NCBI GenBank assembly: GCA_044892525.1
Contig: CM097885.1
Span: forward strand, 26,972,001 to 27,036,000
DNA length: 64,000 nt
Direction: 5' to 3'
DNA from: Schmidtea polychroa
Lineage: Eukaryota
The notes below the pieces were generated by a model. It ran no database searches. It was not told the origin of the DNA and saw nothing but the letters and a program-made list of their open reading frames with translations. Below, piece by piece: positions 7,136 to 61,965 of this stretch (within the stretch, counting starts at the first letter, position 1; the number at the start of each line of letters is the position of its first letter). The position numbers and the translations under genes are program-made.

Positions 7136-10008
7136 TGTTGGGTTAGAACTGATTTTAAGCCCAAGTGGTTGAATCGTGATTGAAAGACGTCGGAACATAA
7201 CATTCAGACATAACATCAAGTCGAGTTAAACTCGAACACGTTCAAACATCAATTAAACAAATAAATAAAGTTTATTCAACACAAAAATAAACTAAAATGA
7301 AACAAAAGCAAGAAGTATTACATGAAATCCAATCAAACACAACATAGATAAATAACAGATGTAGGCAAATTTGAATTATTAGCGATATTGAGAGATAGGA
7401 ATAAAAATAGAAAGATTTCCACAAAACATCATCAGAAAATGAAGTAGAGATAAAATATTTACAATAGAAATGAATAGAAAACTAGAATATTCTATAAAAT
7501 AGCGAAATCCATCATGACCGCCAAGTAGCTAATGAGAATTAACTAAAAGATGAAAATTTTAGAATTAAATTAACAAAAACTAACATGAAATAAAATAAGA
7601 ATTAAAATAAATAGGAATTAGTTAATAAAATCTCTGAAACAACATATAATCTTCTAGGAAAAGTGCATATCCATCATGACGGCGAATTTAATAAAAAATA
7701 AATAAAATATTAAAAATTAGAAAACAAAATAAATAATAAATTGCGAAAAATCGACACCAAAATTGATAAAAATTAAGATTCAAAATTAAAATAATTCAAA
7801 TTTATTTTACTGAATCAATGCATACACACATACTCGTACACCAAAATCATACTATATATACCGACGCATTTCCAGTCAAAATTTAACCAGTTTGTGAATT
7901 TCTGTCACAATTTAACCAAAATCTTATGCTGAAATTTAGAATTTATTTTTCAATGAAAAGGTAAGTAGTTAATTTTATTGTATTATTTTGATATCCAGTA
8001 AATTATAGTCAGGGTTTCTGATTTTTATTTTTCTAAAAGGAAAGGAAAACGAGATCAATTTCTCGGACTAAAATTACTTATTGTTTTTTCCAGCTTACAA
8101 TCACTTAACAAGAAATGAATATGATATGTACAACATGAAGTGGCAGTTGTACTATTTCGTTCCTCTGGAGTAATTTTACTGCGCCGTTTATCGGTATACT
8201 TTATGTGAACTGTGTGGACGACGACTAGTCTACATGGGATGCGCCTGGGTAGCTCCGTGCTATGCTGTCAATAGGTAAACCCAGTATTGCGGAGTACCAC
8301 GGCGATGAACATCTTTATAAGCAGATCGGGAACTACGACAAGCTTTTAGTTTGTTTATGGTTCTAAGGTCTGAATACATAACATTAAGGGTTTATCAAAC
8401 TAAAATACAGTAGTCCGTGTACGATGAACAATTTTCTATTTCAGTAATGTAATAGAACTATAGTGCATGCCGACTACATATTTAAAATCAACACTCAAAT
8501 TACAGATTTCTGTTTCATTATGTAAGACACCAAGAGCTCGCTTTCAAACTTCCAGTGGGCTGAGAGAAACGATAGTTAAACATTATTTATGCTAAATCAT
8601 CACAACACACAAGGAACATTAAATTCGAGTCGAAATTTAACAGTCAGATATTTGGGATAGATCATCGTCTTTTAAACTGAGGGCTAATCCTTATAAAGTA
8701 CCCAATCAGCTCAGACCTTAAGGAGAAAGCAATAAATCTCAAATTTCCTCTACAAAATATTACCATGTGTGATAAATTTATATATTTAGCCTGTCAGCAT
8801 CGAGCGTTCCAACTGGAGAGATGAGATGGGCAGAAGCATTCTGACCAGACTTTGATTGTGTGAATACTGATTAATGCTGTGGTTATGTATATGTAGTCTA
8901 TATATCACGAGAGAGGAACTGATAAGCTATAGCGACATTATCGGAAAAAAAATTTAGCGAGTCGCAACAGCTGGAGGTAGTTTTACCCATACGAGTAGCA
9001 CGCAGACATATCGTCACTGGAAAATATTTGAATACACTAGCGGAAAGACTAAAAAATCTCTGAATTTTAATTAAAATTACCACAGAATCCCTCGATTTTA
9101 TCTCTAGTTATTTACATTGCTGTTAGTTGTTATAGTTTCACACATGCGGTGGATAGATGTATGGGTACATGTGCATATGGTTAGATAAGTGGGCAAGCGC
9201 TAAAGTTTAAATCATTTATTATGCGACACTAAATGAACATTTGCTGAAATTATCGCTCTTTATCCATTCAGTAATCAAGCTATTAGAGGAGATGCAGAGT
9301 GATTGGGAGACAGCAAGTGGAGATGCTCCGCAATCGAGTGGAGCTGCTCCAAGATCAAGTGCGGAAGTCAAAAGGGATCTGTTTCAGTTCGGATGCTATG
9401 AAGAGTCAAATTCAGCAGATAGATACCCTACAGACTCAGGCCGAGCAGTACCGGGTGGAGATTAGAGGACTAAGACTCCAGTTAAAAAAAGGAGCGTGTG
9501 ACCACCAGGAGTTCCTTGAGCAGCAGTGCTCAACGAAGTCATACCGCTGTTACTACAACGCGCCCCATTCAAAATCAGCGACACAACAAACCAAAGTTGG
9601 AAATACGCTTGCTGAGAGTTAATTAATGAAACTCCCAACCGCATGCTCGACTTGTGACGTATGTTATAAGTGTATTAAAATGTATTAAAATAAAACGTGT
9701 GATTCTGGAGAATCTTTTACGTATTTAAAAGTGCCGGGGATTTTCATAAAGGGAAGTAGTAGATTACCTGATAACTTGTGAAAATTGGTAGTGTAAGATG
9801 AAGGGACCTAATTGAAAATCTGAAATAGACCTTCTATCGGTAATCCGTGAACCCTTTCGAATGCTATTTAAGGCTACTTTGAACGGTCACGGGGGTACAG
9901 AGGTACACTCACGTCTCACGAGTATTCACCAATACGACAAGTCATTGTATCTTGGGTTGCGCCGGAAATGACACGAACGAATAAATGTGGATTACCTGCG
10001 ACCCAACA
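7136..10008 (+). mobile_element. Long (2873 bp) solo-LTR-like element
   Basis: Inverted termini TGTTGGGT...ACCCAACA, 4-bp TSD TTAT (7132-7135 and 10009-10012), TATA at about 7853, donor GTAAGT at 7961; 5' part homologous to the element starting at 58160. Confidence 0.8.
9299..9622 (+). CDS. Coiled-coil ORF in the LTR-like element; distant relative of the 42827/48180/49204 family; true start probably spliced
   Basis: LRNRVELLQDQVRKSKGICFSSDAMK aligns by eye with LQTQIRLLKKKSDHLEGTYFTPAQMK; same position upstream of the conserved 3' structure. Confidence 0.45.
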   Translation: MIGRQQVEMLRNRVELLQDQVRKSKGICFSSDAMKSQIQQIDTLQTQAEQYRVEIRGLRLQLKKGACDHQEFLEQQCSTKSYRCYYNAPHSKSATQQTKVGNTLAES

Positions 10009-12329: not shown

Positions 12330-12348
12330 TCAATTGAAAAGATTAATA

Positions 12349-16554: not shown

Positions 16555-16567
16555 ACAAAGATGAAGT

Positions 16568-32311: not shown

Positions 32312-32628
32312 TGTTAGAAGCTATAACATTTAATTCTTCGGTCATCAAAATAAATTACTAAGACTATTAAATCCAAAATTATATTTCATTAAATCTGATT
32401 ATATAAACAAATATTCTTGGGACATTTTCTAAATTTTAATTTCAACCAAATATCAACATACCATCGCATTCATACTTGAATTTCAATTTTATTAAAAATT
32501 ATTTTATTTTAAAATTTCAATTATCATTTCAATTTTAATATCTTAAAATAATTTAAGTTTCAATTAAAACTTTACAAATTTTAATCATGAACTAATTTAA
32601 TTTAGTATTTTAATTTTAACTCCTCACA
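32312..32628 (-). repeat. 3' LTR
   Basis: Direct repeat of 37056-37372 with one substitution seen. Confidence 0.97.
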
Positions 32629-35600
32629 TCCCCTTTTTTTAAAATGTTTGATCTTCTCAACATTTCTGACTACCATCTTCCCATTTTGATCTTTAAGTAA
32701 GTAGCTCCGTTCATGTATTTTCTTTATCACTTTGTACGGCCCTTCCCACCTTGCATCGTCTTTATTTCGAATTTCTTGTTTGATCAAGACCACATCTTCT
32801 ATTTCAAAATCTCTCACTGTTTTGCTTATTTTTGGTTTTAGTGTTTTATCCTCTATTCTCTTTTCCATATCTTCTCTATTTATTTCTTTATTCGAGTACC
32901 ATTTCATTCTGTCGATTTTCCTCCCAAATATAATCTCTGCTGGGCTTACTCCCGTTGTTTTTTGAACTGTTGCATTTAACGTATATTCTATTTCTGGCAC
33001 TATATCAGCCCAGTTTTTCCTTCCTCCTTCATTCAATGACGCGTTAATATACTCTCTGATTGTTCTGAATTGTCTTTCAATAATACCATTCGTGTTATGG
33101 TGATATGGGCTTGAGAAAATTAATTCAATGCCAGCTGCCTTTGCTAGTTCTTTTATACTTCTTGCTTCAAAGTTCTTCCCACAATCTACATGAAGTTCTT
33201 TTGGAGCTCCAAACTTTAATATCCATTTATTTAATAACGTCTCACTAATTGTTTTTTCGTCTTGCTTGTTTATGGCCGTTAATGAGATGTATTTACTATA
33301 GTGGTCAATGATTCCGCAAATATATTTCTTTTTGTTGAACGTTTCTTTCAATGGCCCACATATATCCATATATATCTTCTCGAATGGTTCTGTACTCTTT
33401 ATTGTTTGAGTTTCCTCCTTTGTCTTGGTTGTTATCGTTTTCATTTTCTGACATCTTTCGCAGTTCTCAATTACCTTTTTTACTTCCGTTGCTAAATTTT
33501 CCATGTCGCAGTTATTCTGGATATATTTTGTTACTTTCTGTGCACCTGCATGGCACAGCAATACGTGTACTTCTTTTATCATCCTCTGTCTATTATCTGA
33601 CGGTATCCATATTTTACCTTGCTTAGTTAGTACCGTGTTGTTTTCCATTATGAACTTACAATCTTTATTTTCTAACTTATTCTTTATTTCTTGGACCTCC
33701 ATATTGTCATTTTGCCACTTGTTATATCCGCCTTCTGCTGTTACTGTTACTATTCTGGTTTTAATTTTGCCGGTTTTTGCGTCTTCGTGTTCCATCATAC
33801 ACTGTACACATGTTCCGCATGTTTTCCTGGATAGCATATCCGCGTTTGTATGGCTTGTTCCTTTCCTGTATTTCATTTTAATATCCAGGCTGCTTAAATA
33901 GTTGATCCATGTCTGGAATTGAGCAGTTATTGGTTTCTTCGTTGTTACCATAAACGTAATAGCTTTATGGTCCGTTCTCAGTACGAATCTCTTACCATAT
34001 AAGTAATGGTTGAAATGTTTACAAAAATAGTATATTGCCAATAATTCTTTTCTGGTAATGCAGTATCCTTTTTCGTGGCTGCTCATCGCATGTGAACCAT
34101 ATGCAATGACATGTTCATGTCCTTTTTCATCCTTTTGCGAAAGAACTGCTCCAATAGTATCGAAGCTCGCGTCTGTGTCTAATATAAATTCTTTTCTGAA
34201 ATCTGGAAATACCAATACTGGGGCGGTTATCAATGCTTCTTTCATTTCCCTGAAAGCCTTTTCACACATCTCTGTCCATCTTATTTTCTCATTGTTTTTT
34301 CCGCATATGCTTTCTAGTGCTCTTGCCTTCTTTGCATAGTCTTTTATGAACCGTCGATAATAGTTACAGATACCCAGAAAGCTCCTCAGATTCTTCACAC
34401 ATTTTGGTTTTTGAAATGATTGTATTGCTTCTATCTTAGTATTATCTGTTTGTATGCCGTCTTTATTTATTATGTGTCCCAGAAACTTCACTTCTTTTCT
34501 AAATATTTGACATTTTTCGGGGTTCAATCTTAGTCCTGCTGTTGCGATCTTCCCTAGGACTTTTCCAAATATGTTATAATGGTCTTCTTCTGTCTTTGTG
34601 AATATTAGGATGTCGTCTAAATATACCATCACTCCATCTTTCCACAAATCTTTCAATACTTTCGTCATTAATTCTTGAAATGTTCCTGGTGCCGCTGCAA
34701 TACCGAACGGCATCCTGTTAAAACAGAACTGTCCTTCTTTTGTTGAGAATGCTGTTTTCTCTTGAGATTCTTTATCTAACTTCACTTGGTAATAAGCATT
34801 TCCCAAGTCGATTGAGCTAAAATATCTGGATCCGTGTAGGATGTCTAAAATTTCATCTACATTTGGCATTGGAAATGCTTGTCTTTCTGTTATCTTGTTT
34901 AATTGTCTGAAGTCTAGACAAAGCCTGATGTCTTTTTTCTCTTTCTTCCATACACAAACTAAAGGTGTGTTCCACGGTGAATTACACTTCCTAATTATTC
35001 CGTTGTTTTCTAGATTTTTTATTGCTTCCTCAATCTTGTTTTCCAAATTTATTGGCTGACGTCTCGGTTTAATCATTATTGGCTCTCCTTTCGTGATGAT
35101 CTTATGTTTTATCAGATTGGTACACCCAATGTCCCATTTATCTGCCATAAAAACATTCTTGTTTGCCTGAAATATTTCTAGCAGTCTCTTATTTCCGGTA
35201 ACTTTTAAAACGTCGATGGCATGACGTAATCTTTCTTCATCTGTTATAATCCGCCCAAATCTAGCTTCTATTTCGCAAATGAAATCACTACGTTTTCCAT
35301 GTTCTTCTAGTATACATTTCAATTCTATACCAAATAACCTTTGTAGTTCTACTCCTCCAATAATTTCTGGTATTAAATTCTTTACTATAATGAATGTTAC
35401 ATTTCTTTCAATACTGCCCATTTTAACATTGATGTTTATTTTACCCATAGTTTCTAATCTACTGTTGTTTGCACATCTTAGCGATTCCCTTGTTTCTAAT
35501 ATTTCGATATTTTCTAATCGATCAATTACAGATTTAGCCATCACATTAATTCGCGCTCCTGTATCCAATAAACAATCTACTTTCCGCCCTTGGATATCCA

Positions 35601-35946
35601 GTGTTGTACTCGGTCTACCTTGCATTATATTATATGTTATTACTGGACTTTTTTGTTCTTCTACTGACAAAATATTCTGCTCTCTAGTATCTTCTACAAT
35701 TTCATTAATACACATGTCTCCATTTTTCTTGAGGAATTTGTAAATTTTCTCTATAGTTCTTTCCTCGTGTTTTACTAATTCATTTACTTTACACTCCTCT
35801 TTAAATTTTTTCTGAATTTCCTTATCATTCGACTTTTTAATTTCTACACTACTATTATTATTAATATCACGTTCAAAAACACTACAATCTTTATCAATCA
35901 TACAATCATCATACATACTTAAATTACACATACCGTTAGCATTCAT
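32602..35946 (-). CDS. pol: Pol polyprotein (protease, RT, RNase H, integrase)
   Basis: LLDTGA, YLDD, LDTDAS, H-H-C-C zinc finger, YMDICG/HVDCG/IERQF triad, GPY motif; uninterrupted. Confidence 0.97.
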   Translation of the reverse strand: MNANGMCNLSMYDDCMIDKDCSVFERDINNNSSVEIKKSNDKEIQKKFKEECKVNELVKHEERTIEKIYKFLKKNGDMCINEIVEDTREQNILSVEEQKSPVITYNIMQGRPSTTLDIQGRKVDCLLDTGARINVMAKSVIDRLENIEILETRESLRCANNSRLETMGKININVKMGSIERNVTFIIVKNLIPEIIGGVELQRLFGIELKCILEEHGKRSDFICEIEARFGRIITDEERLRHAIDVLKVTGNKRLLEIFQANKNVFMADKWDIGCTNLIKHKIITKGEPIMIKPRRQPINLENKIEEAIKNLENNGIIRKCNSPWNTPLVCVWKKEKKDIRLCLDFRQLNKITERQAFPMPNVDEILDILHGSRYFSSIDLGNAYYQVKLDKESQEKTAFSTKEGQFCFNRMPFGIAAAPGTFQELMTKVLKDLWKDGVMVYLDDILIFTKTEEDHYNIFGKVLGKIATAGLRLNPEKCQIFRKEVKFLGHIINKDGIQTDNTKIEAIQSFQKPKCVKNLRSFLGICNYYRRFIKDYAKKARALESICGKNNEKIRWTEMCEKAFREMKEALITAPVLVFPDFRKEFILDTDASFDTIGAVLSQKDEKGHEHVIAYGSHAMSSHEKGYCITRKELLAIYYFCKHFNHYLYGKRFVLRTDHKAITFMVTTKKPITAQFQTWINYLSSLDIKMKYRKGTSHTNADMLSRKTCGTCVQCMMEHEDAKTGKIKTRIVTVTAEGGYNKWQNDNMEVQEIKNKLENKDCKFIMENNTVLTKQGKIWIPSDNRQRMIKEVHVLLCHAGAQKVTKYIQNNCDMENLATEVKKVIENCERCQKMKTITTKTKEETQTIKSTEPFEKIYMDICGPLKETFNKKKYICGIIDHYSKYISLTAINKQDEKTISETLLNKWILKFGAPKELHVDCGKNFEARSIKELAKAAGIELIFSSPYHHNTNGIIERQFRTIREYINASLNEGGRKNWADIVPEIEYTLNATVQKTTGVSPAEIIFGRKIDRMKWYSNKEINREDMEKRIEDKTLKPKISKTVRDFEIEDVVLIKQEIRNKDDARWEGPYKVIKKIHERSYLLKDQNGKMVVRNVEKIKHFKKRGCEELKLKY

Positions 35947-35969
35947 TCTTTGGTTAAAATCAATATTAC

Positions 35970-37056
35970 TTAGTAAATTGCTCCGATCAATGTCCCGTTT
36001 GACGGAGCGTGCTCGTTTGGGTCATTCTCCCTGTTATACTCGTCTGGCTGGCTTGACTGTTTTGTATTCATCATCTCATCATCAGACTCGATAGCTGCAA
36101 TATCTTTTCTGTTATATTGTTGGTTTCCCCATTGTCTTTGATGTACGTTCCTTGATTGATACATATCGTCCCTTTGTTGATAGGTATTTCTTTGAATTCT
36201 TCCTCCTGACATCTTCCTTTGGTCTCGATCTCTTCCTTGATTTCGTCTTTCCATATTTGTGTAGCACTCTCTTTCTTTGTGTCCTCGTGCATTGCATCTA
36301 TGACATTTGATTGTTGGGCATTCTCTTCGTATGTGACCTTCAACACCACATGCATAACATTGAAATCTTCTTTTTATATTACATTCTCTGCTACTGTGTC
36401 CCGGTTTTTGACACGTCCAGCATTCTATCACTTTAACTCTTGTCTCTGGTTTCCATTCGTTGATTTCTCTCTTCGTGGCTCCAACTTGTACTACATCTCT
36501 ATAAGTTCTTCCCCCAGTTGTAGGTCGTATTGATCTCACCGTGTTTACTTGTTCAATAACCTTGTTAACTTTTTCTATCTTCTTTATAGTTTCTTTAATT
36601 TGTTCCGCCGTTTTGAGATCTTTCATTTCGATTTCTTTCCTGACTTCTTTATCTCTTACACAATGTGTCAATAAACATTTCTGAATTTCTTCCTCATTCC
36701 AAGTGTGTGAGGCCAATTTTTTAGTCATTTTTGATATTTTCTCTATAAATATTTCCGCTGATTCGTTACCTTGCTCGTAGTTCAAGGCTTCTCTTAAGTC
36801 ATCAATCAATGACGTTGGTCGATGAAAAGCTGCTCTTAATTTCTGTTCAACGGTTTTACCTTCTGTGGTTTCATATTCTTCAATCAAAGTCCTGTCCAGA
36901 AGTGTAATAACTAGTACCATTTGGGTCTTCACTGGTGTCTTCGCTTTTTTCAAAGAACCTCTGACATTCTTTGATAAATAATTCGAGGTCATCTCCTCTG
37001 TGGAATTTTTCTGGAAGTAATCTTCCAATAAGCAGATCCGTTGGAATGGTCGCCAT
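35970..37056 (-). CDS. gag: Gag with three CCHC zinc knuckles; frameshift in an A-run at about 36945-36950
   Basis: CWTCQKPGHSSREC, CYACGVEGHIRREC, CHRCNARGHKEREC; the N-terminus MATIPTD...ECQRFFE is in a different frame. Confidence 0.9.
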
Positions 37057-37372
37057 GTTAGAAGCTATAACATTTAATTCTTCGGTCATCAAAATAAATT
37101 ACTAAGACTATTAAATCCAAAATTATATTTCATTAAATCTGATTATATAAACAAATATTCTTGGGACATTTTCTAAATTTTAATTTCAACCAAATATCAA
37201 CATACCATCGCATTCATACTTGAATTTTAATTTTATTAAAAATTATTTTATTTTAAAATTTCAATTATCATTTCAATTTTAATATCTTAAAATAATTTAA
37301 GTTTCAATTAAAACTTTACAAATTTTAATCATGAACTAATTTAATTTAGTATTTTAATTTTAACTCCTCACA
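37056..37372 (-). repeat. 5' LTR
   Basis: Adjacent to the PBS; direct repeat of 32312-32628. Confidence 0.97.
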
Positions 37373-38919: not shown

Positions 38920-39953
38920 GACTAACTTCAGTACAGCAACTTTAACTACTAATAATCATCAGGAACTCATAGAACGACTAATTTTAGCAAACATTTTACA
39001 GATTCATTTAGCAACGATTTAGAATAGAAACTACTTTATCGCAAGTTATTACGGGACAATATTAGATTCAGGAACTTTAGCTATTGAAACCATTTCAAAG
39101 ATCCGTATATTCAGTTCAGTTTAACAGTTCGAGCAAAGCCGTTAAAGAACCAAGTAAAGATTTTGATTATTGATGATTTTATCTTTATTATTTTAATTTT
39201 TACGAGTGAATTCTAATAGTAAATTATCATGAATGTATAAATTTTCATTAAACAAAATATTATATTTATTAGCACACTTGTCTTTTCTATTCACGGAACT
39301 GGCGACGGTGCCGTTTGAAATCTCTGGATATGATGCCAATGAACCGAGGACACGAGAATTATAATTCGAATAGTTTCGAAGACATGTAGTTGGATCCTAT
39401 AGATAAAATGATTGGAAGGAAGATTCTATTATGTCAATGAGGAATCATCAGAAGAATTCAATATGAGCATTGTTGGAAAATGAACTGCGTTAGTAAAGTC
39501 CCATGTCGTGCATCATACTCAGAAACCAAAGGACATGGTCGCCAGGTAAATTTGATATTGGTGGGTTACAGGTCGTCTAATTTCTACCTACTCGCGCTGT
39601 TTCCAGCGTAACCCAGAATACAATGAAACCGTTGACCGCTTGACACCCGTTGAGCAATCAACGTTGGTACTGTGTCAAGGGTTAGGGTACTAGCAAAAGG
39701 TGAGCATGCTTAACATACTATAATTGTCTAGCACCCTCTGGGGTTCACGGACTGCCGATAGAACGCTTATGACCGATTTCTCTAGGTCCCCGTTATGACA
39801 ATTGACGTTTTCGAATAATCGGAATACACGAACGCTAACATAACAACAATGATTTTTTATTTGAGATCACCCCTTTATATGACGAGTTCATGAGGCTCTG
39901 GTAGACTCCTTCGGGGTAGTCGATTGAATTGGTGTTTGTACCAGGCTGGCCTG

Positions 39954-40276
39954 TCATCCGGGTAGCATCCTAGGGTACCCGTCGATGTCCTCCAGGTCGC
40001 CGGCTAGGGTTGCATCCTCGAGCCGTTGTAGTTGATCCACAGCTGCCTTTCCATCTTCGAAGGCTTCGACCAGAGCTAGGGAGGTGGCGTTGACGAAGGG
40101 ATCACCGGGACCACATTCTGGTAGGTCCAGTCGTGAATCTTGTACCAGATCCACCTTGACCTTAGTCGGGTGACTTCTCCATCTCGGTCCGGATTGGTGG
40201 AGTCTTCTGCCTCCTCGTGGCTCGGGTCGGTTGGTGAGGGACCGGCCTGTGCATTTCTTTGTCTAGTGTTGGGCAT
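39954..40276 (-). pseudogene. Small acidic/disordered ORF (MPNTRQRNAQAGPS...) with a frameshift near 40160
   Basis: GC-rich coding-like island; acceptor TTTTATCACAG directly before the ATG; two overlapping track ORFs. Confidence 0.45.
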
Positions 40277-40832
40277 GCCTGTGATAAAATAACATTAAGG
40301 TACTTCCTAACGAGCCTTTTGATCACCAATTCTGGTTTTATAAAGCAAATCTTAAATTCCGACTCGACCTTAGGATTAAACTTAAAGACACGGTCTTCGT
40401 CTTTTAACTTGAGAAGTATATATTGGCCAAACCAAGCTGAGGGCATAATTTTATATCTTGGCTCCAAACTTTAACTTAATGAAACTTAACTACAGCGAAA
40501 TCTTTATGCTCTGTTGGGCTGAGTCGGAAAATCAATTTGGGAAATTAGGAAAATAAAATAAGCAAGAGGCTAAAGAAAAACAAAATAAAATAAAACAAAT
40601 TACGAATAAAATATAAGAAAAACAATAATTAGGAAATAAGAATTAAAACAAAAATAAAAATAGAAAATTAAAATAGGACAATGGAAAAACGGATAAAATA
40701 ACGTAAAATTCAATAAATAATAAGGAAATTAAAGAAATAAATAGAAAATATAATAAAAATAAAGAAAATAGGAAGAAATAACCAAAAACAAGAAAAATAA
40801 ATTAAAGCAACAAAATTAAGCGGTACTCAATT

Positions 40833-40960
40833 CTGATTGGTCCGCACACACAGAAAATTAATATATAAACACGCACAAAAATCATAAAATTACTGTTAAT
40901 CTAAACATTCTACAGGTAAGAGTACTTTTAAATAATACTGTTAATCTAAACATTCTACAG
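40833..40960 (+). promoter_or_regulatory. CCAAT/TATA promoter with ~25-nt first exon and 45-nt intron (40916-40960)
   Basis: CTGATTGGTCCGCA (shared with 38086), TATAAA at about 40864, CAG|GTAAGA and TCTACAG|. Confidence 0.7.
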
Positions 40961-42826
40961 ACCTACAATAACCGACAAGGATAATCAACAATCAAAATCA
41001 TTTTCTAGGAGCATTCAGAGATCGAAATCGAGACAACTAATTACTGAGAAAGTACCGAATCTATTTCCGACTCAGCCTACAACACTACAAGTGATACGTA
41101 AGCAGATTTTTGTTTGAAAGTATTAGTAATCATGAGATGTTCGTAAAAGTAAAATTAAATGAATTATGATTTTCTTTTCGGTTGATCCCTATTAATATTT
41201 TCATATAATTTTAATGATTAAATAAATGGTTTTAATGATAAATGCGTTGTTTTAGATATATTTATGAATTAGTCGGAAAGTCTATAATTTTATGATTGTG
41301 CATTTTATGAGAAACGTGGAGTTGAGACGTTTCATGTCATGGTGTGAGGGGCCTTCGGGAGCTCAGCCGGTGGACATGAAACGTTTCAATCACGCAGCTG
41401 ACTTGGGCCGAAAAGTGGGGGCTTCCTCACGGGTCCGTCGCTGAAGGTTCCTAACTTAGTTGAAACAGTGGACTATAGATATATGAGAGATTTCAATTAG
41501 AAAATTTAGCTACGTTCATGATTCACAGTGATTTGAGGCGGCCACCACCAATTTTTCGTATCTGGAAAACTGTTATCCACCATAAGTCTGATTCGTAGCA
41601 CTAGTTCAGGCGACCGTAATCTATAAATCCGAGTTCGTCAACCCTCATCACATCTTGGTATTCAACCATCTACTTGATTCTTCCAAAAAATCATCTTAAT
41701 TCGAGAATTTTACTTCAATACCTGATAACTATCTGACGGGGTATCATAAACAACTTATACACGAAAAAGCAAAACACAAGACTTCCAATATAACCACACT
41801 TTATTTTTGAAAACGCTGGTTAACCAAAATATAGTACTTACAAAATGTTTCCGAAAATTAGCCGTCGGAGTAAGATTCATGGTCATCTTTTAGATAAGTA
41901 ATCCGATTCCCTGTCGTAGAATATATCCCACATTAGGGAAAGCCTCGTAATCATAAATCCACATTCTGCAGGTGAAAGCGAGTAAACGGAGGGGAACTGA
42001 CAAACACATAATTTTTCCGATATTGTCACCCGGTAAAATCTCATCCAACTACCCATGTGTGAATGCGAAATGCAATTGATATCGACAGTAGATACAGATA
42101 AGCATCCATGAGAATAGCACAGGACTACCAGCTTATCATGATCAGCGAGAGCATTTGTTGTAATATGTGTGCGACATGAATTATTAGATAGACAGCAGCC
42201 GGTGAGTAGGATCGATAACTATCACCGTGCAGTACACCGAACCGACCAATAAATCACTGACTTTTATCTGGTGCGAAAGTGTCTCGTGGCGCTGATAATG
42301 AGTAACAAATTAATCCGCTAGTCGACTTGGGGTCAACTCTCCACTGCAAACTATTTTTGTAATGTTCACGTTTTTAGACCACCATAATAATAAATAAACT
42401 GCCCTGCGTATATTTAAATCCTCGGCATGAAAGATATTAAATGGGAGGAGGAAATGCCTGTTGGGGGAATAATTCGTCTCGAATTATGTTAACTATAATA
42501 GTCTTGGGTCGAGGTCTAAATAATGAAGTGAGGGTTTAGGGAGGAATTCGGTGTGTGTTGAATTTAGTAATAGCATAATTGTCACCATGATCCCGGATTT
42601 TGCATTTGTCAATACAATCGTGCCTAACTATGTAAATAAAATTATGTAATAAATCTAGCAGTAACAAATTAATTACCTGAGATTGTAAATTTCTTACTAG
42701 TCAGTGTGGTCTCCTTGTTTTGTTGTAAGTATCAAATATGAATAAATAATCTGTAGGGTGGAGTGATGTCTTCATAAATGCCGTATATTTGTATAAAAAT
42801 TTTCTTCACTTTTCTATCTAACTGTC

Positions 42827-43576
42827 ATGCTACCGAATAATCGACCCGCATTACGTCCTTGTTTCTCCTGCGCCGATAAAAACTCTATTATCAAGGATCT
42901 GCAGGCCCAGATCGGTCGATACAAGAAGAAGATCGACGAACTGGAATGCACATGGTTCAGCCCAGTGCAAATGAAGGAGGTTCGAAAGAAATTATATCGC
43001 AGTGAGCATTGTCGGGATGCCCTGATTTCTGAGAGCCGTTCCCAACGGAGCTTGATAAAGGAGCAATCTGAAGCGCTCCACAAAGTATATTTACAAGCAG
43101 CAACTACGAGGCAATTAGTCAGTATACCCATTCACGAAGCGGACAATGTTTTCCCGATACATCACGACACCTCGTTTAAGTCGTCACCTCCGGCCAAGAA
43201 GTCTTGTCGGGAATGTGTTGAAGCCGACCTCTCCCCCAGGCATCCAGATATCGTTTTCCCCAAGATCGGTAAGGTGCCAATCGCCGGTACCTCTACCTCG
43301 GCGGTACCTCCGATTAGTCAGGTGGCACCAAAACCCAAGCGACGGCAATTGTCGAGAGCCGATCGCAAGAGAAAACAGCGAGAGCGCGCGGCCGCCAAGC
43401 ACAACGAACAGCCAGCGGAGAATCCTATTAGTGTTCAGCACCCTCCGACGACAATTGATCTGACCATCGGGGTCCCAGGGCGAATTATCTCCGCCGCTGG
43501 AGTGACCTGGGAGGAAAATGCCTCCGAATTCTTTGATTTGGAAGAGTTGTTGGCCGACACTGAGTGGGAAAAATGA
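42827..43576 (+). CDS. Element-encoded 249-aa protein: CxxC, coiled coil, basic NLS-like segment, acidic tail
   Basis: Intact GC-rich ORF with two clear paralogues in the window (PCFSCxDKN...FSPxQMKE...EHCRD...SEALHKVY). Confidence 0.85.
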   Translation: MLPNNRPALRPCFSCADKNSIIKDLQAQIGRYKKKIDELECTWFSPVQMKEVRKKLYRSEHCRDALISESRSQRSLIKEQSEALHKVYLQAATTRQLVSIPIHEADNVFPIHHDTSFKSSPPAKKSCRECVEADLSPRHPDIVFPKIGKVPIAGTSTSAVPPISQVAPKPKRRQLSRADRKRKQRERAAAKHNEQPAENPISVQHPPTTIDLTIGVPGRIISAAGVTWEENASEFFDLEELLADTEWEK

Positions 43577-45524
43577 GAATCCTCTGTCCGTTCAACCCGC
43601 TTCGAAAGACGAATATCAATGTTTCTTTTCTTATTTTCTCATCATTCATGTATAACTGTGCGGTGTAAATTATCAACGTTTTATCCCATCGTGAGGAAAT
43701 AAATCATGTTTGTTGCTAATGTTCTTATTATATTTTTTGTGTAAAGTTTATGACATAGATTTTAGTTATTCTAATCAATATCAGTGAAAATCTTTATAGG
43801 ATCTATAAGTGTCTTCTAAGGCCGGGTTGTTGGTTTGAACGAACGGTCTGATGATATGAGTAGACGTAAGTCCTTCTATCGGCAGTCAAGGGAAGGAAGT
43901 CGAGGCCTCAGTAAGGAGTAGTCCAAAGGTAGGGGCTCACCTGCTTACTGGCGTCTCGCCGACATAGTGCATTACCAACGTGAAGTAATTCACGGGTACT
44001 ATGCTGGAATATAAGTTGTGCGGGGTACCGCTCGGAGTTACAAAGGGAATGGATAAAACAGACAAAGTAGACCATCATCTCCTAGGCAAAAAGTGAAATT
44101 GTAGAGGTGAGTCCGAGTAGTGCCCCAGCAGCTCATTCACTTTAAAATTCAGATTAAAGAAAAATATTTTCGACCCTAATCTAATTTTACAAATTAAGGA
44201 GGAAAAATCCAACTCGTCATATACTTTAAACCTTAATTGAAAGTCAGATTTCTTATTTTTCGAATTTCTTAATTTATGATATTGTTTTAGTTCGCTACTT
44301 AATTAAAAAAATATTTTATGTCAACATGTTACTATTTAAAATTCTCTTTTTTAAATATTAATGGCTTTCCACCGAAACCAATTGCAAGGTGTCGAACGGT
44401 AATGCTTGGAGCTTTGCACAAGCTACTTACCCTCTTCTACCAACAATTGTAGTAGGTGGAACTTTCGTCTTACCACATAAAAAGGTAAATTTTATTTGAT
44501 CTGCTACAAATTGAATTTTAGGTATTTGTTTTGGCTAGTGAATTTTACTAGTGGATTGATTAGTTGCGGAAATAATGCTGGGAATTCACGGGACGTCTCG
44601 ATTTGATAGTAGAATTGGTTGGTGGATACCTAACGTAATGGAGATGGATTTGTTCAGTTCATTCGTCATTTACATCATTCGACTTTCCTTTTTCCATTTC
44701 AATCGGTAAGTTTAATTTCAAGTCAAGAATTTTTAAATGCGATCGTACATGTCTAATTATAGGATATGGTATAGTTGCACAGGGAGCTAATGGGGAGATA
44801 AATGATGATCACAACTTTAGATTTAGACTCTTGGATATATCAGCAATTCTGTGTTGACTGAGGCTGTGATAATAATAAAAATTCCTGGTGTTATTATTTA
44901 TGGTGAATTATTGCCGATATGTGACGGTTGTATGTTAATTTCTGATTAAAAATTTTGCTCTGAGATGAAAATATAGGTTGACTGAAAATTATTTCAGGGT
45001 GATAATAATAGCTGTAATAATAATGATCACATCGATGGTCTACATCACGGATGATAATGAAATCGCGATAACCTCGACACTAACGGTGCTATTACTACCG
45101 GTAACAATAGTCGATATAACGGCAGGGGGAGTAATGGCAATTTCATAATTTATTATACATATTATTGAACTTGAGGTCTATACCATTGTCTCCTCTCATT
45201 ATATAACCAGGGAGGGGTGGCTTGGGTAATTTTAGATTATGTATTTATCTATTTGATGTCTGCATATACATACTCACACACATACACCCACGTATGCACA
45301 CAGATATATAGGTATATATGTACATCATTACATTACTTTGGGGTGGGGGTTGTTACTAAAAATAGATTAGGGGGGTTTGGTAATTTTATTGGGGAATAGG
45401 ACTGTTGAAGTTAAATCTAGAGATAGGGGATTTCCAACATTAACACTTTGTTTATATTATTTTTATAAAATAAGATTATTTTAATAATATAATACCATTA
45501 GTGGGAGCGACTGAGTTAAAAGAA

Positions 45525-45775
45525 AAATTGTGAAAATAATAATGACAATCATACTAATATTAATGATGATACCGCCATTAAGGGAAACATAGTAAAAATA
45601 CTAATGACAATAATAATGATATTAATGATGATAATATTACTAATGTAAAATTTGAAAAAATAATAATGACAATAATAATGATATTAATGATGATAATATT
45701 ATTAAGGTAAAATTTGTAAAAGTAATAATGACAATAATAATGATATTAATGGTGATATTATTATCAAAAAAAAAT
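45525..45775. repeat. Minisatellite, ~63-bp unit, about 4 degenerate copies
   Basis: Recurring TAATGACAATAATAATGATATTAATGATGATAATATT. Confidence 0.8.
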
Positions 45776-48179
45776 TTATATTTTTATAAGACTATTACCT
45801 ATCCACGGCTTGAGGGGGGTTAATTATGAAAAATTGTTCAAATTAATTTCTAGACGAAGTATAAGTGAATTTATCTAAAAATAAAATAAATTAGAGCCGT
45901 TGGGTAACCATTATTGAGTATGGTCCAAGGGGGTCATTTATGGAAAATTTCTAAATTTATATCATAAAGATAATCTAAGCAAAATATGCATATAACATAA
46001 TCAAACATAGATTTGGAGAAGTACCGTTGGACGATAAAAATTTAAAGTTTTTATATAACTTGTCTTTAGTACATATAAAAATAAACCTAAAAAAGAACTC
46101 TGACGAAATAACTTAGGAATCATTTTATAATTAATCAAATAGACACAAAATAAGGATTACATTTTAACAAGTGCAAAAATCTAGATGTTAATAAAGATCG
46201 TGTACGTTTGGGTATTAGTCACATGACATAGACCTTGAGGGGTGAATATAAAAATCGTATAAGGTATTTCTGGCGAAATTAAGCTTTCGAATATAATTTT
46301 GGCTAGTTGTTATGATCCTAAATGATGAAAAGATATTTTATTCCGTGATATTTCTAGGTGTAGTAGACTTTTAGATAATAATTAGGTTTTCTAAACATTT
46401 AATTTTGTACTACTATATGATGATAGGTGGTTCGTTAGAAATTATTGTAGGGTCGTTACACTGTTAGCCTTCTAATATTAATTTTTATAACATCAAATAA
46501 GGAAAAGGTAGGTTACTTCGAAGTGGATTTTAAGTTTTCGAACCAAGATATAGTTTTCTGAAATAGTATAGTAGAAATATAATTTATTCGAAGAGGCATT
46601 GGTATCATTTTATTTAATTTCTGTCTTTATATTTTTGTTGTCTTTCCTCTTAATTAATATTGTTTATTTGATGTATTTTTTATATTTAACTGAACTTATT
46701 GCTATTTGCGTGCTATGTACCCACGCACGAGTTTTTGGGTCTAGAAATCAGTTCTAGCCCAACAATATTGATAATTTAGAAAACGAAATGAAATTATTGA
46801 CACAGTTTTATTTATGTATTATTTCACATTTATGATTTATTAGCATTGATAATTACGGTCGATCGGTCTATCGTGGCGGTCTCGATACGGTCGGTAGCAA
46901 TACCGGTGGTCCCCAGGTGAGCCTTGGTAAGTGGAAAGACCACTGAGGAGATATATAGAAATTTCGAAATATTAAAGGAAAATAAGTGCCTTCATCGAGT
47001 GGCAGACATCATAGATTAGTAGATCGCTGATTTTCGAGACTAATATCACAAGTTTCTGATATGAATTTCAACCCTTTTGATAGTTAGAGAGTGACAAGGA
47101 TTGTGGAGACAATCGAATCGTCATAAGCGTTATCAGTATAATCCGATAGGGAATAGATAATCCAATTGTCGACTTAAAAACTACAGTAGTTATTTGTGAA
47201 CATGAGATAACTAGATTCTTGCGAAACGAATAATTACTCCAGGTGGCCAGATCATGTCATTAGTTATCGCTAGATAGTAAATCCTTGACTTTCACCGTAA
47301 TTGCCAGAACATTTTTAACGTAGACATTCCAATGTAAAACGAACGTCGATAGAATTTTCTTCATTTCACCATTGTTAATTTAATAAACCGAAACCTCCTT
47401 TCATTAGATCGATGAACGCTGGTAAGGATAATCTATACATCCTGCCGACGAGATTTCATTTTCCATATAATTCATTCCAAAAATTGTCTTAGTAAAATAA
47501 ACATTGATGATAGATTAAGTAAACTAATTCGGATAAGATCGAGAAATGATTTACATAAATTGATAAACATTATTTCCATCTCTTAACGTCAATTACATAA
47601 ATCTGAAAGTCATAGCATGGGGAGTACCAGTCATCCGGGTTTTCGATAAATAAATCAGATTAGATCAAGATTAGTGCGAGAATAAACAATTTATCAGATA
47701 ATCATTCCTCACATAGAATTTACACGATAATTATCTGTGAATCAACCACGTTGTCAAACAAATTAACCACATAAACAAATCCATGTTAGTAAGAATTTTA
47801 ATAATAAGGTAAATTAAATCTTCCAAATTTCCACTTATAAACACAAATCATTTATGTTAATAAGAATATAAATTCCTTCTAAACGATTGTATTTTCTCAC
47901 GCAGTTCATGCAGTGTACGGCCGATAATACATAAAATCCCGAAAACGTTTTTTCGAATAATTAATACTTCGTCAAATGAAATGAATCATTCAGGTTGATC
48001 AAACCTCACCCTTAGTAACATCAATATTCAGGGAAAATGTCGTTCGTAAAATGTATGGAATACGGGGTATCGAGATAGTATATGGAGTGAAAGGGAAGGG
48101 AATTGTTATGAAATGCTTACTAATCTGCTACAGCTGAACTTTTCTCCTGTCGCGTTAAACTCTTATTTATTTTTCAGTT

Positions 48180-48941
48180 ATGTGCGAGCCGAATCTACAG
48201 CCGAAAGGGCCAAGACCTTGTTTTTCCTGTGCAGACAAAAATGCCGATATAAAGAAACTGCACGAGTACATAGGGGCTTTGAAGAAACGCATTGAAACAT
48301 ACGAATGCACATGGTTCTCCCCGCCACAAATGAAGGAGAAAACTAAAATCTTGAGACTGGAGCACTGTAGAGACAGTCTCCTCGAAGAAAGTAGATGTCA
48401 GAGATTGACCATCAAGGCCCAGTCGGAAGCCTTGCATAAAGTATATTCAGAATAGGAAATCCAGAAGAGAATACGGGAATACCCTATTAAGGACGGAACC
48501 AACGTGTTCCCTCTTCATCACCGAGCTGATGAACTACAATTTCCCGTAACCAATTTCACAGGACATGGAAGTCAATTTCCACTCATAGCCGATTCAATCT
48601 TGTCTGGATCATTAAAGGAATCTAAGGCACCAGTAACGAACGACAAGGAACCAATTCCCGCTCAGATTTCTAATCTCATCACCGAACCCACTACTTCGTC
48701 GCCGAAGAAGCGCAAACGCCCTTCTCGGGCAGAGAAGAACCAGAAACGTCGAGATGCGATGGCCGCTTTGGAGGCATCCTTATTTGCGGCTCAGGCGTCA
48801 AAGGACGCAATCCCAAAGAAAATTCCGCTCGTCTCGGAAGAAACTTATCGCATCATCCCTTCCGAAACTCTACACTCTCAGGAATATGCTCGGCTGCAGG
48901 TGGACATAGACGATCTGTTAGCCGATGGAGAGATGCTTTAG
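48180..48941 (+). pseudogene. Paralogue of the 42827 ORF with an in-frame TAG at 48453-48455
   Basis: The two track ORFs are in the same frame; shared motifs and acidic tail DIDDLLADGEML. Confidence 0.8.
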
Positions 48942-49203
48942 TGAACACTGATATGATATCCCAGAAAATGCTGTTCGAACCCGAATGAACCTTACTCTCG
49001 GACATTCTGTATAAAGTGATTTGGGCTCTTCATTCTATTGTATTTGGTTAAATCGAGTCTCTCGGGTGCGAAGGTATAGGGAATTCTTTTTTCTTTTCTC
49101 GATCTATTATCGACGATCATAAAGGTCGAACAGATATTTTTTCAATTTCATTACCCATGATTCCGTTACTTAACTTTGCTATTACAACTTGATTACTTTA
49201 GAA

Positions 49204-49971
49204 ATGTCGAAAACCCCAACAGCTACGACTCTTCTTCTGCCATGCTTCTCATGCACCGACAAAAACGCAATTATCAAAACATTGCAAACCCAAATCAGAC
49301 TACTGAAGAAGAAGTCAGATCATCTCGAAGGGACATATTTCACTCCCGCTCAAATGAAAGAAGTGCGAATGAAGTTGTCGCGGGCCGAACACTGCCGCGA
49401 TAGTCTGATCGAGGAGAGCCGCTCGTTGCGACTGTTAGTCAAGGAGTAGTCTGAGGCCCTGCACAAGGTCTACGTGCAGGCAACGATTACGAAAAAGATC
49501 ACCTCAATACCCATCTCGGAGGAAGATAATGTTTTCCCGGGATATCATCCATCAGTCCCGTCGGAAAATCGAGCCTGCAATAGTTGCATGGACGAGCTCC
49601 TATCGCCCACAATATCTGACGCTCGTGCCGCTGGTGTCAACAGAGTGGCCTCAAGGCCTATCGTTATCTTGAATCCAGTCCCTCCTCCGGTGGTAAAAGC
49701 AACCCCTAAGCGTCGACAACCAACACGGGCCGAACGAACAAAAAGACGGAAGCTACTCCAAGCCGAGCGAGAGGCGAAGTTGGTCTCCGAAGCCATGCAG
49801 ATGTCTCGATCTGTGCCGGCTGAAACAGTAGCTCTATCACAGCCTCCGTTTCGGGTAGTCCCATCATCCAGCACTACCTGGGAAGAAGATGCGAGAGATT
49901 TCTTCGATCTCGACATGATTTTCGCCAAAGCTTCCTCGTCGACCTTGAAACATTATGTTCAAGAATTATGA
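49204..49971 (+). pseudogene. Paralogue of the 42827 ORF with an in-frame TAG at 49447-49449
   Basis: Same-frame continuation; TWEEDARDFFDLD matches TWEENASEFFDLE. Confidence 0.82.
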
Positions 49972-50559
49972 TGTTGTTATTGAATGAGCAGACCAGCTAT
50001 CATCAAATCCTTTTGTTTAATTCTCTGCTATTAATAATTCATGTAGATACACCCTCAGTATGCTGTGGAAATTGGTGTTATAATGGTATTTCTTTAAATA
50101 AATGTTGGATCACGTAGTAATGATAGTTCTGATATCTGTTTCCGAAGTTTTCTTTTGTTGTATTGTAAAAAATGGTGAAACCATGGTGATGAATGAGAAA
50201 TTGATAGTGAAGTCACATAATTTTGATCGATACCTCGAATAATGGAAAAGACATAAGCCCTTCTACCGGCAGTCGGGAAATGGAGAAGTCGAGGTAGGGT
50301 GAAGGAGTAGTCCTAAGGCAGGGGCTCACCTGCTTCACCTTATCTCGCCATCATGGCACAGTACCAACATGGTGTGAATCATGGGTGTCATGATGAGAAA
50401 GTAGTCGTGTAGGTTTTTGATTAGCGGTCAACATAATATGGTGTAAGGTTATTTTTTTGGACTATAATCCCCTGGTAACACGTAAACTCTTGTTGAACTA
50501 GGCGACTCTTTTGGAGTATCTTTTGGAGTCAGATAGTGTGAATAATGCTTGATCGCTAT

Positions 50560-53401: not shown

Positions 53402-55027
53402 TAGGGCTTGCAATACCGATTTACCGGTTAACCGGTAAATTGCTAAAAAATTCATTACCGAAAAACCGGTAAATTCATTATTTTTTACCGGTTTTTTCGG
53501 TAAAAATTTAAACTTTATATTACACAATATTTATCGTTTTGTTCCGTTCCGTGCATACTATTTTATAAGTAAATAGTTGAATTTAATATTTAAAATTAAT
53601 AATTATACTATAATAAAGAAATTCGACTTTATTTATAAAGTAGTATGTACGGAACAAAACGAAAAATATTGTAAAATATAAAAAGTTTCACACTTCTGTT
53701 CAGTGGTCACAAGTCACACTCGCACCTAAGTAAATATAAAACAAATTTTTGTTTCTTGTTGTGTATGCAAATGCGTGAAATATTCATGCTTAATATTCTA
53801 TTATTCTATCATATATATGTTAAGTGCTCGCTCAAACCGTGTTAAGTGCTCGCTCAAACCGAAGTAGAAATTTTTTATTTGTTTGTAATATTCAAGTTAT
53901 ATACTGACAGAAACGAATGTTTTTCGTGGAATTTCGAAATATTGAACAATTTTAACTGTTAAAATTGAAATACATAAATTGTTGCAGTATATAATTTATA
54001 AAAAATATATCAATTTTTTTTAATATAATAGAACGTCTCATAAAATTTAATAAAGGTAAGGTAATACAAAAAATACTAATTTATTCGTTATTTAAAACCA
54101 AAAAATATTTTAGCCATCATGCGTTCAAATTTAATATGGACCTATTTCAAAGAAACAAATAAGAATGAAGCCGTCTGCAATAGTTGTGCGAAACCGATTA
54201 AATGTGTTGGTGGTAGCACTAGTGGTTTGCATGCCCATCTTAAATCTCAGCATAAAATTAATCTATTGAAGAGAAAAGATGACGAAAGTGATATGGCATC
54301 ATCTAGTCAAATTACAAACAAAGTCATCGCTAGCACTACAAACAATAATATATCAAATTTCTTTATAAAAAAGGTTGATGATTCACTTCCAGCTGTTCTC
54401 GCGCGTTTGACAGCAAAAGATAATATACCGTTTTATAGAGTTGCCACATCCTACGATATCCGAGTACTAATTAAAGCTAAATATAATAAAGAAGTACCAA
54501 GATCTTCCCATACGATCAAAAAAATTGTAATGGACTATGGGGATAAAATTCGCAAACAAGTGGTTGAAGATTTATCCAACCGAAAAGCTAATAATAGTGT
54601 ATTCAGTTTGACGTTTGACGAGTGGACGTCTGTTAAGAATCGACGATATATGAACATAAACGTTTCAGCAGCCGGTCTGATCTGCACCAAGTTGAGGTCG
54701 ATCTTAAATGATAACACGTTAAACACAATGTGTTTTTAAGGCAGTATTTTAATCAAAAACAAGAGTTGAAATGAAGTTTTAATTTTTTTCTAATTTGCGT
54801 TTATACTTTTTTTTATATATTATAATGTTATGATTATGAATTAATAAAATAAAAGAATGAATTAATAAAATAACTGACTTGAATTTTATAAAACATATTA
54901 TAAGTAATTAGTTTGAATAAAATATCAACTAACTAAAATACTCTCAAAATTACCGGTTTACCGGTTTTTTCCACATAAATTACCGAATTACCGGTAATTG
55001 AAAAAGTCGGTAAATTTGCAAGCCCTA
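53402..55027 (+). mobile_element. Internally deleted hAT transposon, 1626 bp
   Basis: TIR TAGGGCTTGCAA, perfect 8-bp TSD TTGGTGAT, subterminal ACCGGT repeats. Confidence 0.96.
54119..54739 (+). CDS. Truncated hAT transposase: BED finger and first catalytic Asp fused to the C-terminal tail
   Basis: IWTYF...CNSC...HLKSQH BED finger, LTFDEWT, then SAAGLICTKLRS typical of the hATC end. Confidence 0.85.
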   Translation: MRSNLIWTYFKETNKNEAVCNSCAKPIKCVGGSTSGLHAHLKSQHKINLLKRKDDESDMASSSQITNKVIASTTNNNISNFFIKKVDDSLPAVLARLTAKDNIPFYRVATSYDIRVLIKAKYNKEVPRSSHTIKKIVMDYGDKIRKQVVEDLSNRKANNSVFSLTFDEWTSVKNRRYMNINVSAAGLICTKLRSILNDNTLNTMCF

Positions 55028-59980: not shown

Positions 59981-60089
59981 AGTAGATGGATTGGGCACCG
60001 CTGGCACAGGGCACCGCTAGCACAGTACCCCCCCCCCCCCGTCGTCATATTTTTCTAAAATATGGTAAGTCTAAAAGTACAATTTTTTT

Positions 60090-60841
60090 TAAACAAAGAC
60101 ATATGACTCATCAAGGTCATTGAAACAAAGACCATGACTCATAGTATGACTCATCAAAATTGTCAAGGTCATTTAAACAAAGACCATGACTCATCCTATG
60201 ACTCATCAAGGTCATTTTCAAGGTCGTATGACTCATAATATGACTCATCAAGGTCAAAAAATTTTTTTCAAGGTCATTTAAACAAAGACCATGACTCATC
60301 AAGGTCATTTTCAAGGTCAAATGAGTCATACTATGACTCATATGACCTTGAAAATTTTTTTCAAGGTCGTATGACTCATAATATGACTCATCAAAATTTT
60401 CAAGGTCATTTAAACAAAGACCATGACTCATATTATGACTCATCAAGGTCATTTTCAAGGGCAAATGAGTCATAATATGACTCATATGACCTTGAAAAAT
60501 TTTTTTCAAGGTCATCTGACTCATCCTATGACTCATCAAGGTCATTTTCAAGGTCATATGAGTCATAGTATGAGTCATATGACCTTGAAAAAATTTCTCA
60601 AGGTCATATGACTCATATGACCTTGAAAAAATTTCTCAAGGTCATATGACTCATACTATGACTCATCGAAATTTTTTCAAGGTCATATGACTCATACCAT
60701 GACTCATCAAAAATTTTCAAGGTCATTTTCAAGGTCACCTGAGTCATCCTATGACTCATCAAGGTCATTTTCAAGGTCGCATGACTCATCCAAGGTCATT
60801 GCCAAGGTCATATGAGTCATCGCGATGACTCATCAAGGTCA
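60090..60841. promoter_or_regulatory. Array of AP-1-type (TGASTCA) and NR5A/ERR-type (YCAAGGTCA) sites in the Polinton terminal region
   Basis: About 30 and about 25 copies respectively, counted by eye, in both orientations. Confidence 0.7.
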
Positions 60842-61003
60842 TATTATTATTTTTAAAAATATTATTATTTTTATTATTATTTTTAAAAATATTATTATTT
60901 TATTTTTAATTTTTTCAAAGTTCCCGCCAACGAAAATTAATAATCGATAGCTCATTTTAAAGCTCAATCCAAGACCTTTCGAATGAGCTATATATCTTGT
61001 TAC

Positions 61004-61192: not shown

Positions 61193-61684
61193 CTAAATAT
61201 ATATAGTATGATATTCATTAATCAGTGTTGAACAGGCTTGACACTTCCGAACATTCTTCTCATGACACTTAGAACAAACAATTACGTGACCACACGGTAA
61301 ATACAAAACCGAAACTCGATTTTCTTTACAAATTGAACAAGTTAAATATCTTTTCTTAACATCTTTCAATTTTTTCGTTAGCTTATTTTCAATCAAATCG
61401 GCTTTCGCTATCCATTCATAAATCAATCTACTATATCCCGGTTTCAACCTTAAAAACATACAACTCCAAAAGTATTCATTCAGTGAATCGTTGTTTACTG
61501 CTATTTTTTCTAAGTACATTAAATAACAAGATAACTTTAAAATAGATTTCTCATAATTAAATAAATCAAACAAATATTCAATAGAGGAATGTTTGAAAAT
61601 TTTTAAAATATTTATGAGTTGCTTATCACTGTAAGTATCATGATTATTTATAAAATCTTCAAGTGTATTGTTAAAAAATGTCAA
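61193..61684 (-). CDS. IAP-type C-terminal RING finger protein (no BIR seen)
   Basis: CSICKENRVSVLYLPCGHVIVCSKC...CQAC...IYI at the extreme C-terminus. Confidence 0.85.
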   Translation of the reverse strand: MTFFNNTLEDFINNHDTYSDKQLINILKIFKHSSIEYLFDLFNYEKSILKLSCYLMYLEKIAVNNDSLNEYFWSCMFLRLKPGYSRLIYEWIAKADLIENKLTKKLKDVKKRYLTCSICKENRVSVLYLPCGHVIVCSKCHEKNVRKCQACSTLINEYHTIYI

Positions 61685-61965
61685 TGAAATTTCCGAATAG
61701 GCTGGACTTAATTTTTCCTTATTTCTAGTAGGACTTCCTTGCTATAAATGACATATAAAAAAAAATTGTCAAAATAATAAAGTTACCAAATGTGTTACAC
61801 ATTCATCGGTTTTATTTGTATAAATCATTATTAATAACTAAATTACTTTTGTTTTTTACATTTATAAAAATTGTGATAACCAATCAAAATAGAGCTTTCA
61901 AAATGTAACCATCAAATGTATAACAATAATAAGCATGACTAGTACCCTTTGCAACCTGTTTAAAG

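Follow-up and report, generated by a model that had tools for sequence, protein, structure and literature searches.

A covarying motif upstream of the tRNA-Pro primer site in LTRs of giant Gypsy retroelements of Schmidtea polychroa, predicted to fold into three RNA hairpins

The window, i.e. the whole 64,000-nt stretch of DNA analysed here (Schmidtea polychroa assembly GCA_044892525.1, contig CM097885.1, positions 26,972,001 to 27,036,000), harbors LTRs, either solitary or broken, of giant Gypsy retroelements of the Burro type. Element A is a lone LTR of 3,619 bp with TG...CA ends (40512..44130, plus strand), flanked on both sides by the TSD GCTC and nested in element C. The latter (39559..46764, minus strand) is an LTR interrupted by element A, with family-C ends and the TSD ATAT; its relatives matched the first 170 bp and the last 400 bp only, and the middle is assigned from the ends alone. 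Element D is another lone LTR (7136..10008, plus strand; TG...CA ends, TSD TTAT), and element B (plus strand) is an LTR that has lost its last few bases, its 3′ end being clipped near 50507 where relatives continue to the LTR end and the primer site. Elsewhere in the genome, relatives of element A share its ends and possess 4-bp TSDs of their own. LTRs of this group are often nested in one another (A within C, plus four loci elsewhere in the genome), and at seven loci their ends abut (ATT)n repeats, perhaps because the elements inserted there. LTR A further encodes an ORF (42827..43576, plus strand) for a protein with a basic stretch and without Pfam match, a member of an LTR-encoded family; homologous ORFs are found in both LTRs of complete copies, and element B carries two tandem broken paralogues (~48180–48941 and ~49200–49971), likewise without Pfam match.

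Other residents of the window include a Maverick/Polinton-like block (11706–21279) with an A32-type ATPase (Pfam) and, by eye, an integrase-like frame and a broken DNA polymerase-like frame on the minus strand, as well as a small Gypsy element (32312–37372, minus strand) with gag, PR-RT-RH-IN and 317-bp LTRs that are 99.7% identical. The remainder comprises a BED-finger transposase fragment (54080–54739), a RING-finger frame (61193–61741), a palindromic minisatellite (60088–60845) and a long A/T-only simple repeat (854–2054).

Four complete relatives of 30–34 kb have paired LTRs that are 99.8–100% identical, and the motif described below is present in both LTRs. In a 33.9-kb copy, the polyprotein is represented by frame pieces of 3,280 and 1,510 aa across two adjacent stretches. 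Between them, two complete copies scanned against Pfam yielded CCHC knuckles, MATH (PF22486), a fusion glycoprotein (PF24664; in frame, between Gag and protease), PR, RT, RNase H, integrase, ankyrin (PF12796) and BIR-RING (BIR: PF00653). In these two copies, gag is followed by PR-RT-RH-IN between direct LTR copies, the arrangement that defines Ty3/Gypsy elements. No BCL2 domain was detected in the complete copies by Pfam at E 0.01; in another copy we noticed, by eye, a word that we take to be BH2-like. Size, a single polyprotein of ~4,800 aa with Gag CCHC knuckles, MATH, the in-frame fusion glycoprotein between Gag and protease, PR-RT-RH-IN, ankyrin and BIR all agree with the planarian Burro/GYPSM1 elements as portrayed in section 7 of PMC6431247; in the copy examined here, the BIR-RING module differs in occupying a separate downstream ORF. 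The carriers are hence assigned to Burro/GYPSM1 by size and domain layout. Section 7 of PMC6431247 is silent on LTR RNA structure and on the primer.

Across carriers of the motif, LTR length varies from 1.5 to 5.1 kb. At the short end is a complete gag-only element of ~15 kb with identical 1,660-bp LTRs (C3, ~71.33–71.34 Mb), which has kept the motif. Many of the primer sites examined below come from its clade, suggesting that this non-autonomous family is very active.

The word CYTTCTAYCGGYARTC occurs in the window exactly at 9830, 43872 and 50259 on the plus strand and with one mismatch at 39750–39765 on the minus strand, that is, at all four places where a previous sequence-only reading had put it. 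By chance, a mean of 0.01 such matches would be expected (100 shuffles). Genome-wide, the exact word has at least 3,340 matches and a variant with a shorter loop at least 676, compared with none for the reversed control in either case; both counts are lower bounds, as only exact pattern matches were scored. Complete copies of the motif lie in element A (43863–44003, plus strand; fold z −2.87), element B (50245..50408, plus strand; 141 bits, fold z −3.99) and element C (39623..39779, minus strand; 108.5 bits, fold z −3.21), and these three also share GCTCACCT, with TACCAAC following the long stem, again as previously reported (copies at 43872, 50259 and 39750). Element D retains a degenerate version (9816..9926, plus strand; 21 bits, fold z −0.12), in which domain 1 is intact and the remainder disrupted, while its relatives have the full motif. 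A fifth, decayed copy was picked up by the motif model at 26789–26940 on the minus strand (43 bits, E 1.6e-11); the small Gypsy element at 32312–37372 has no match to this model. In the three TSD-bounded elements D, A and C the motif sits ~180, ~260 and ~205 nt from the end, respectively, in line with the earlier description. As the window elements are lone or broken LTRs, their “3′ end” corresponds to the part that precedes the primer site in genomic RNA.

The motif is predicted to fold into three hairpins on the element RNA, described here with the coordinates of element A (plus strand). Domain 1 (D1; 43863..43887) is a small hairpin with a GAC/GTC outer stem, a CC/GG inner stem and a near-invariant loop of 6–7 nt (TTCTATC, 43874–43880); its 5′ side includes the splice-donor-like word GTAAGT (43866–43871). 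The outer stem reads GAC/GTC in most clades and is changed on both sides in clade F. A linker (43888..43900), purine-rich in element A, separates D1 from D2 and is of the GAACCC type in 62 of 101 rows, of the purine type in 32 and of another type in seven. Domain 2 (D2; 43901..43958) is the long hairpin of the original finding, with pairs that have changed on both sides and a conserved 1×3 internal loop between TAGT (43919–43922) and GCTCACCT (43935–43942). All three long stems proposed from the letters are present as written, except that the CGAGG stem of the copy at 43872 starts at 43901 rather than at 43891. A third hairpin had been missed. This domain 3 (D3; 43963..44003) displays an 8×1 side loop in which ATTACCAA (43971–43978) lies opposite a single G; the loop ends in CCAA and contains the TACCAAC word, thus turning what looked like a trailing sequence into a part of the fold.

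To evaluate this model, we aligned 34 representatives drawn from 42 clusters of 137 distinct copies, leaving out near-duplicates and visibly decayed rows; column identity was 64%. RNAalifold returned a pair of long hairpins; for 21 of their 24 base pairs, at least one row shows a change on both sides. In the unfitted alignment, 90.5% of 1,184 cells can pair (shuffles: 71.4%; slid controls: 35–39%) and 28 of 35 pairs are changed on both sides, figures to be read with the fact that the structure was corrected once after pair counts (inner D2 helix) and is thus tuned on that same alignment. The first hand model of this inner helix was mis-set, one of its pairs forming in 0 of 34 rows. D3 has 96% and 93% of its cells paired and changes on both sides in 12 of 14 pairs.

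Since relatedness inflates covariation counts, we used a tree-aware null in which independent columns are simulated along the tree. For the unfitted alignment, two of 36 structure pairs and none of 11,592 others reached E<0.05, and seven of the eight top-scoring pairs belonged to the structure. After fitting to the model, which left 78 of 110 rows once the nine weakest had been dropped and a 93% identity filter applied, four of 35 structure pairs and none of 12,055 others did so; the summed score was 981, the highest value among 300 null runs being 116. The individually significant pairs all fall in D2 (one in each test) and D3 (three in the fitted test). No D1 pair is individually significant in either test, so that the support for this domain consists of conservation and clade-level swaps. 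The deep sample comprises about four clades from one genome. These pair counts and tests bear out the earlier proposal that the RNA near the element end has a conserved structure with covarying pairs, a proposal which a larger alignment might have overturned.

None of the ~12,000 pairs outside the structure qualified as a tertiary contact in the tree-aware tests. One candidate between the D1 loop and D2, suggested by a double change in a single locus (L261), was dismissed as a singleton with 84% identity to its nearest relative; no such pair covaries. As to the strand, G-U cells outnumber A-C cells by 126 to 36, and the three complete copies of the window fold better in sense (z −2.9, −4.0 and −3.2) than in antisense orientation (−1.5, −1.0 and −1.4). 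Both the G-U excess and the better sense folding indicate that selection has most likely acted on the sense RNA of the element.

We then asked whether the fold belongs to a known RNA class. Rfam 15 held no family over the motif at E≤5 (window) or E≤10 (six loci), leaving the search that the sequence-only reading had suggested empty-handed. That reading had also raised an unknown ribozyme. Hairpin ribozymes have an invariant G after the cut and AGAA in loop A. Invariant loops on covarying stems would suit a self-cleaving RNA of unknown class, and in clades A/B an AGTC word faces a purine-rich strand, reminiscent of hairpin-ribozyme loop A. However, 16 of 101 rows lack the G expected after the would-be cut and AGAAG is present in only 11, which led us to reject the hairpin ribozyme; the hammerhead, defined by a CUGANGA/GAAA core on a three-way junction, was rejected as well, the core word occurring in one of 101 rows. 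Thus, the catalytic nucleotides of these two known classes are not kept. Other retroelements do carry ribozymes: retrozymes and Penelope-type elements, as covered in passages of PMC4918200, resemble the present case in bearing a conserved RNA fold in a terminal repeat, but have hammerhead ribozymes where we find neither hammerhead core nor Rfam match, and here the carriers include autonomous 30-kb elements. Tertiary covariation is lacking, and a cut at this place would presumably leave the primer site and R on separate molecules, so that first-strand transfer could not take place. Altogether, we regard self-cleavage as highly improbable.

A screen of viral contigs gave no motif match, and the single hit to a metagenome contig (11 bits) was discarded as a chance match in a bacterial-type coding region.

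In some relatives, a primer site lies seven nucleotides after the LTR and is an exact complement, over 18 of 18 nt, of a genomic tRNA-Pro(UGG) gene plus CCA. This site occurs 1,124 times genome-wide. According to the motif model, the motif precedes 69 of 70 primer sites checked (the first 30 listed, plus 40 picked from rows 31–100 outside the clade-C list; three of the 70 copies were also in the model’s training alignment). The sole exception (L283) is interrupted by other DNA. From D1 to the primer site, the distance is 200–270 nt. That this spacing is fixed despite LTRs of 1.5–5.1 kb ties the motif to the primer end of the LTR and not to the promoter. The earlier suggestion of a packaging or strand-transfer signal is thereby recast: a cis-acting replication role is plausible, yet the identity of the elements as LTRs had been missed, and their “end” is the stretch before the primer site. 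The tRNA-Pro(UGG) genes themselves form a tandem array with a period of 475 bp (C1, from 130.90 Mb), and the T-arm pattern has 2,183 matches genome-wide.

The predicted promoter of LTR A (40835..40921, plus strand) combines a CCAAT box, a TATA element (40862) and the first splice-donor-like site (40916). This layout recurs at the same offset in two related LTRs, 330–400 nt into A-type LTRs, while C-type LTRs have TATA and initiator-like words near 650–720 nt. Judged from these signals, transcripts would start ~3 kb upstream of the motif, which would place it in the 5′ leader, inside the first predicted intron, and probably in U5 or R. Contigs of presumed RNA runs cover the motif. Of those listed, none bridges the LTR end and none is spliced or polyadenylated at the motif; they therefore place neither the start nor the end of the transcript. 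In contigs of one such run, loose poly(A) ends map to L197:2532–2571, within the A-rich first 400 bp of the LTR and upstream of a stronger TATA/initiator-like site at L197:2835; they reflect either internal priming or a 3′ end near the LTR start.

A leader of several kilobases would hinder scanning, and the fold could accordingly be pictured as an internal ribosome entry site. Yet the long ORF starts ~3.7 kb past the primer site in clade C and ~8 kb past it in clade E, far from the motif, making this the kind of function we would least expect.

We slightly favor the view that the fold is a 5′-leader replication signal, serving both tRNA-Pro priming and the selection of unspliced RNA by Gag. 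The three hairpins would help load and activate the tRNA-Pro primer and would mark unspliced RNA for Gag. In such a scheme, the variable stems would act as a scaffold, whereas the near-invariant D1 loop, the internal loop of D2 and the side loop of D3 may be the sites at which Gag/nucleocapsid, the tRNA or a different region of the same RNA contacts the fold. This explanation is preferred because the fold is tied to the primer end, is kept in autonomous and gag-only elements alike, and unites free stems with fixed loops; retention in a gag-only element is what would be expected of a signal needed in cis. The same position of the motif also fits a role in export, in packaging only or in splicing.

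A hint at priming comes from the linker between D1 and D2. In clades C, E and F its GAACCC type is complementary to the T arm of tRNA-Pro, which points to a priming role along the logic of HIV-1 primer activation, and the word has no conserved partner inside the leader. On the other hand, the complement is absent from clades A/B, home of two of the three complete window copies, clearly beats shuffles in few single clusters, and was chosen as partner in none of 21 co-folds with the tRNA. In HIV-1, according to the parts of PMC3675109 and PMC11251516 that deal with it, the primer activation signal is a U5 word complementary to the T arm of the primer. What HIV-1 shares with clades C, E and F is the presence, ahead of the primer site, of a short complement to the 5′ side of the primer’s T arm. 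The two cases differ in distance (~60 nt from the primer site in HIV-1 vs. 185–240 nt here), in the tRNA positions paired (48–55 in HIV-1 vs. T-stem and T-loop positions here), in that the word is missing from clades A/B, and in its setting within a three-hairpin fold unlike the HIV leader.

A pure packaging signal, in which Gag recognizes RNA for packaging by binding the three hairpins, with no role in priming, would equally account for the motif being kept in the gag-only element. Because the first predicted splice donor is upstream of the motif, splicing would remove the motif from the RNA, and the packaging determinants of Ty1 reside in the first 380 nt, as stated in a section of PMC4974528. 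What speaks against this reading is that no palindromic kissing loop exists, GACG appears in one of 101 rows, and no Rfam retroviral packaging family matches. The psi of retroviruses is mostly located downstream of the primer site, at odds with the position found here. A retroviral dimer initiation site was rejected as a candidate, 6-nt palindromes being present in 0, 5, 0 and 0 of 101 rows in the four loops; the formerly suggested dimerization by a palindromic loop thus finds no support, three loops having no such palindrome and the fourth one in only five rows. Overall, packaging without priming strikes us as rather unlikely.

Nuclear export would assign the fold to elements of the RRE/RexRE type, bound by a basic protein encoded in the LTR. 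The ORF with the basic stretch does end 290 nt upstream of the motif in element A, and asymmetric internal loops of fixed sequence may be taken to resemble protein-binding sites. However, a 1.66-kb clade-E LTR without an ORF of at least 200 aa keeps the motif, so that the protein would need to act in trans, and export elements do not require a fixed distance to the primer site. We deem such a role improbable.

Slightly less credence still is due to a control of splicing or polyadenylation, with D1 showing or hiding a U1 site or the fold spanning the gap between an upstream AATAAA and a remote cleavage site, as a fold of HTLV-1 does. GTAAG is found in D1 in 52 of 66 A/B, 36 of 43 E and 28 of 28 F copies (most F copies having been selected by a pattern that holds GTAAG), and three LTRs have AATAAA 146–174 nt upstream of the motif. 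Yet GTAAG is present in none of 33 copies of clade C, which nonetheless has 385 LTR–primer junctions, and a young clade-C LTR is devoid of AATAAA within 400 nt. Moreover, a signal present in both LTRs cannot alone distinguish them.

Returning to the preferred replication signal, an extended version would have the D3 side loop pair with the first U3 bases at the far end of the RNA, circularizing 25–30 kb of RNA, while in three of four clades the linker holds on to the tRNA-Pro T arm; this variant we hold to be unlikely. In all eight elements compared, the D3 side loop and its flank can form a 5–10-bp duplex with the LTR start that falls within the top 0.7% of background 16-mers; the sites were picked after looking and are nearly invariant on both sides. 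The terminal inverted repeat of each LTR offers the same complement, and among 45 elements with both parts (the selecting scan required both words) no compensatory change was found between side loop and LTR start. An alternative pairing of the D3 loop with the edge of the primer site was rejected, as 2–6% of background sites are equally good.

End-to-end pairing has a model in Ty1, whose 5′ leader, in the account given in parts of PMC4974528, combines extended tRNA boxes, CYC5/CYC3 cyclization and a pseudoknot; the same parts describe a bipartite primer site for Ty3, the RNA structure of which was still uncharacterized at the time of that 2016 review. Both Ty1 and the planarian elements are thus LTR retrotransposons whose RNA is structured in the 5′ region that surrounds the primer site. 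They differ in that Ty1 has its signals in GAG and hence downstream of the LTR, whereas the fold described here is inside the LTR and upstream of a full 18-nt primer site, and in that no pseudoknot or end-to-end pair is backed by covariation here.

With respect to novelty, the family is known, and some structure in the leader next to the primer site is to be expected. Within the literature covered and Rfam 15, the particular fold appears undescribed: no description was found in titles, abstract openings and passages (including PMC8532177 and PMC11410931). What sets the fold apart from known leaders is its location wholly inside a multi-kilobase LTR, 200–270 nt upstream of the primer site, and its three-domain architecture.

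Rather than a new kind of system, we thus describe a fold whose role is predicted from sequence. Cis-acting RNA signals have been mapped in detail for a few retroviruses and the yeast element Ty1. Here, a well-bounded fold of ~150 nt is present in thousands of copies, across clades whose LTRs differ threefold in length, and in an element that bears env and whose genome is among the largest of any retroelement. The fold may therefore provide an entry point to the priming and selection of a 30-kb RNA, as well as a marker for finding these LTRs.
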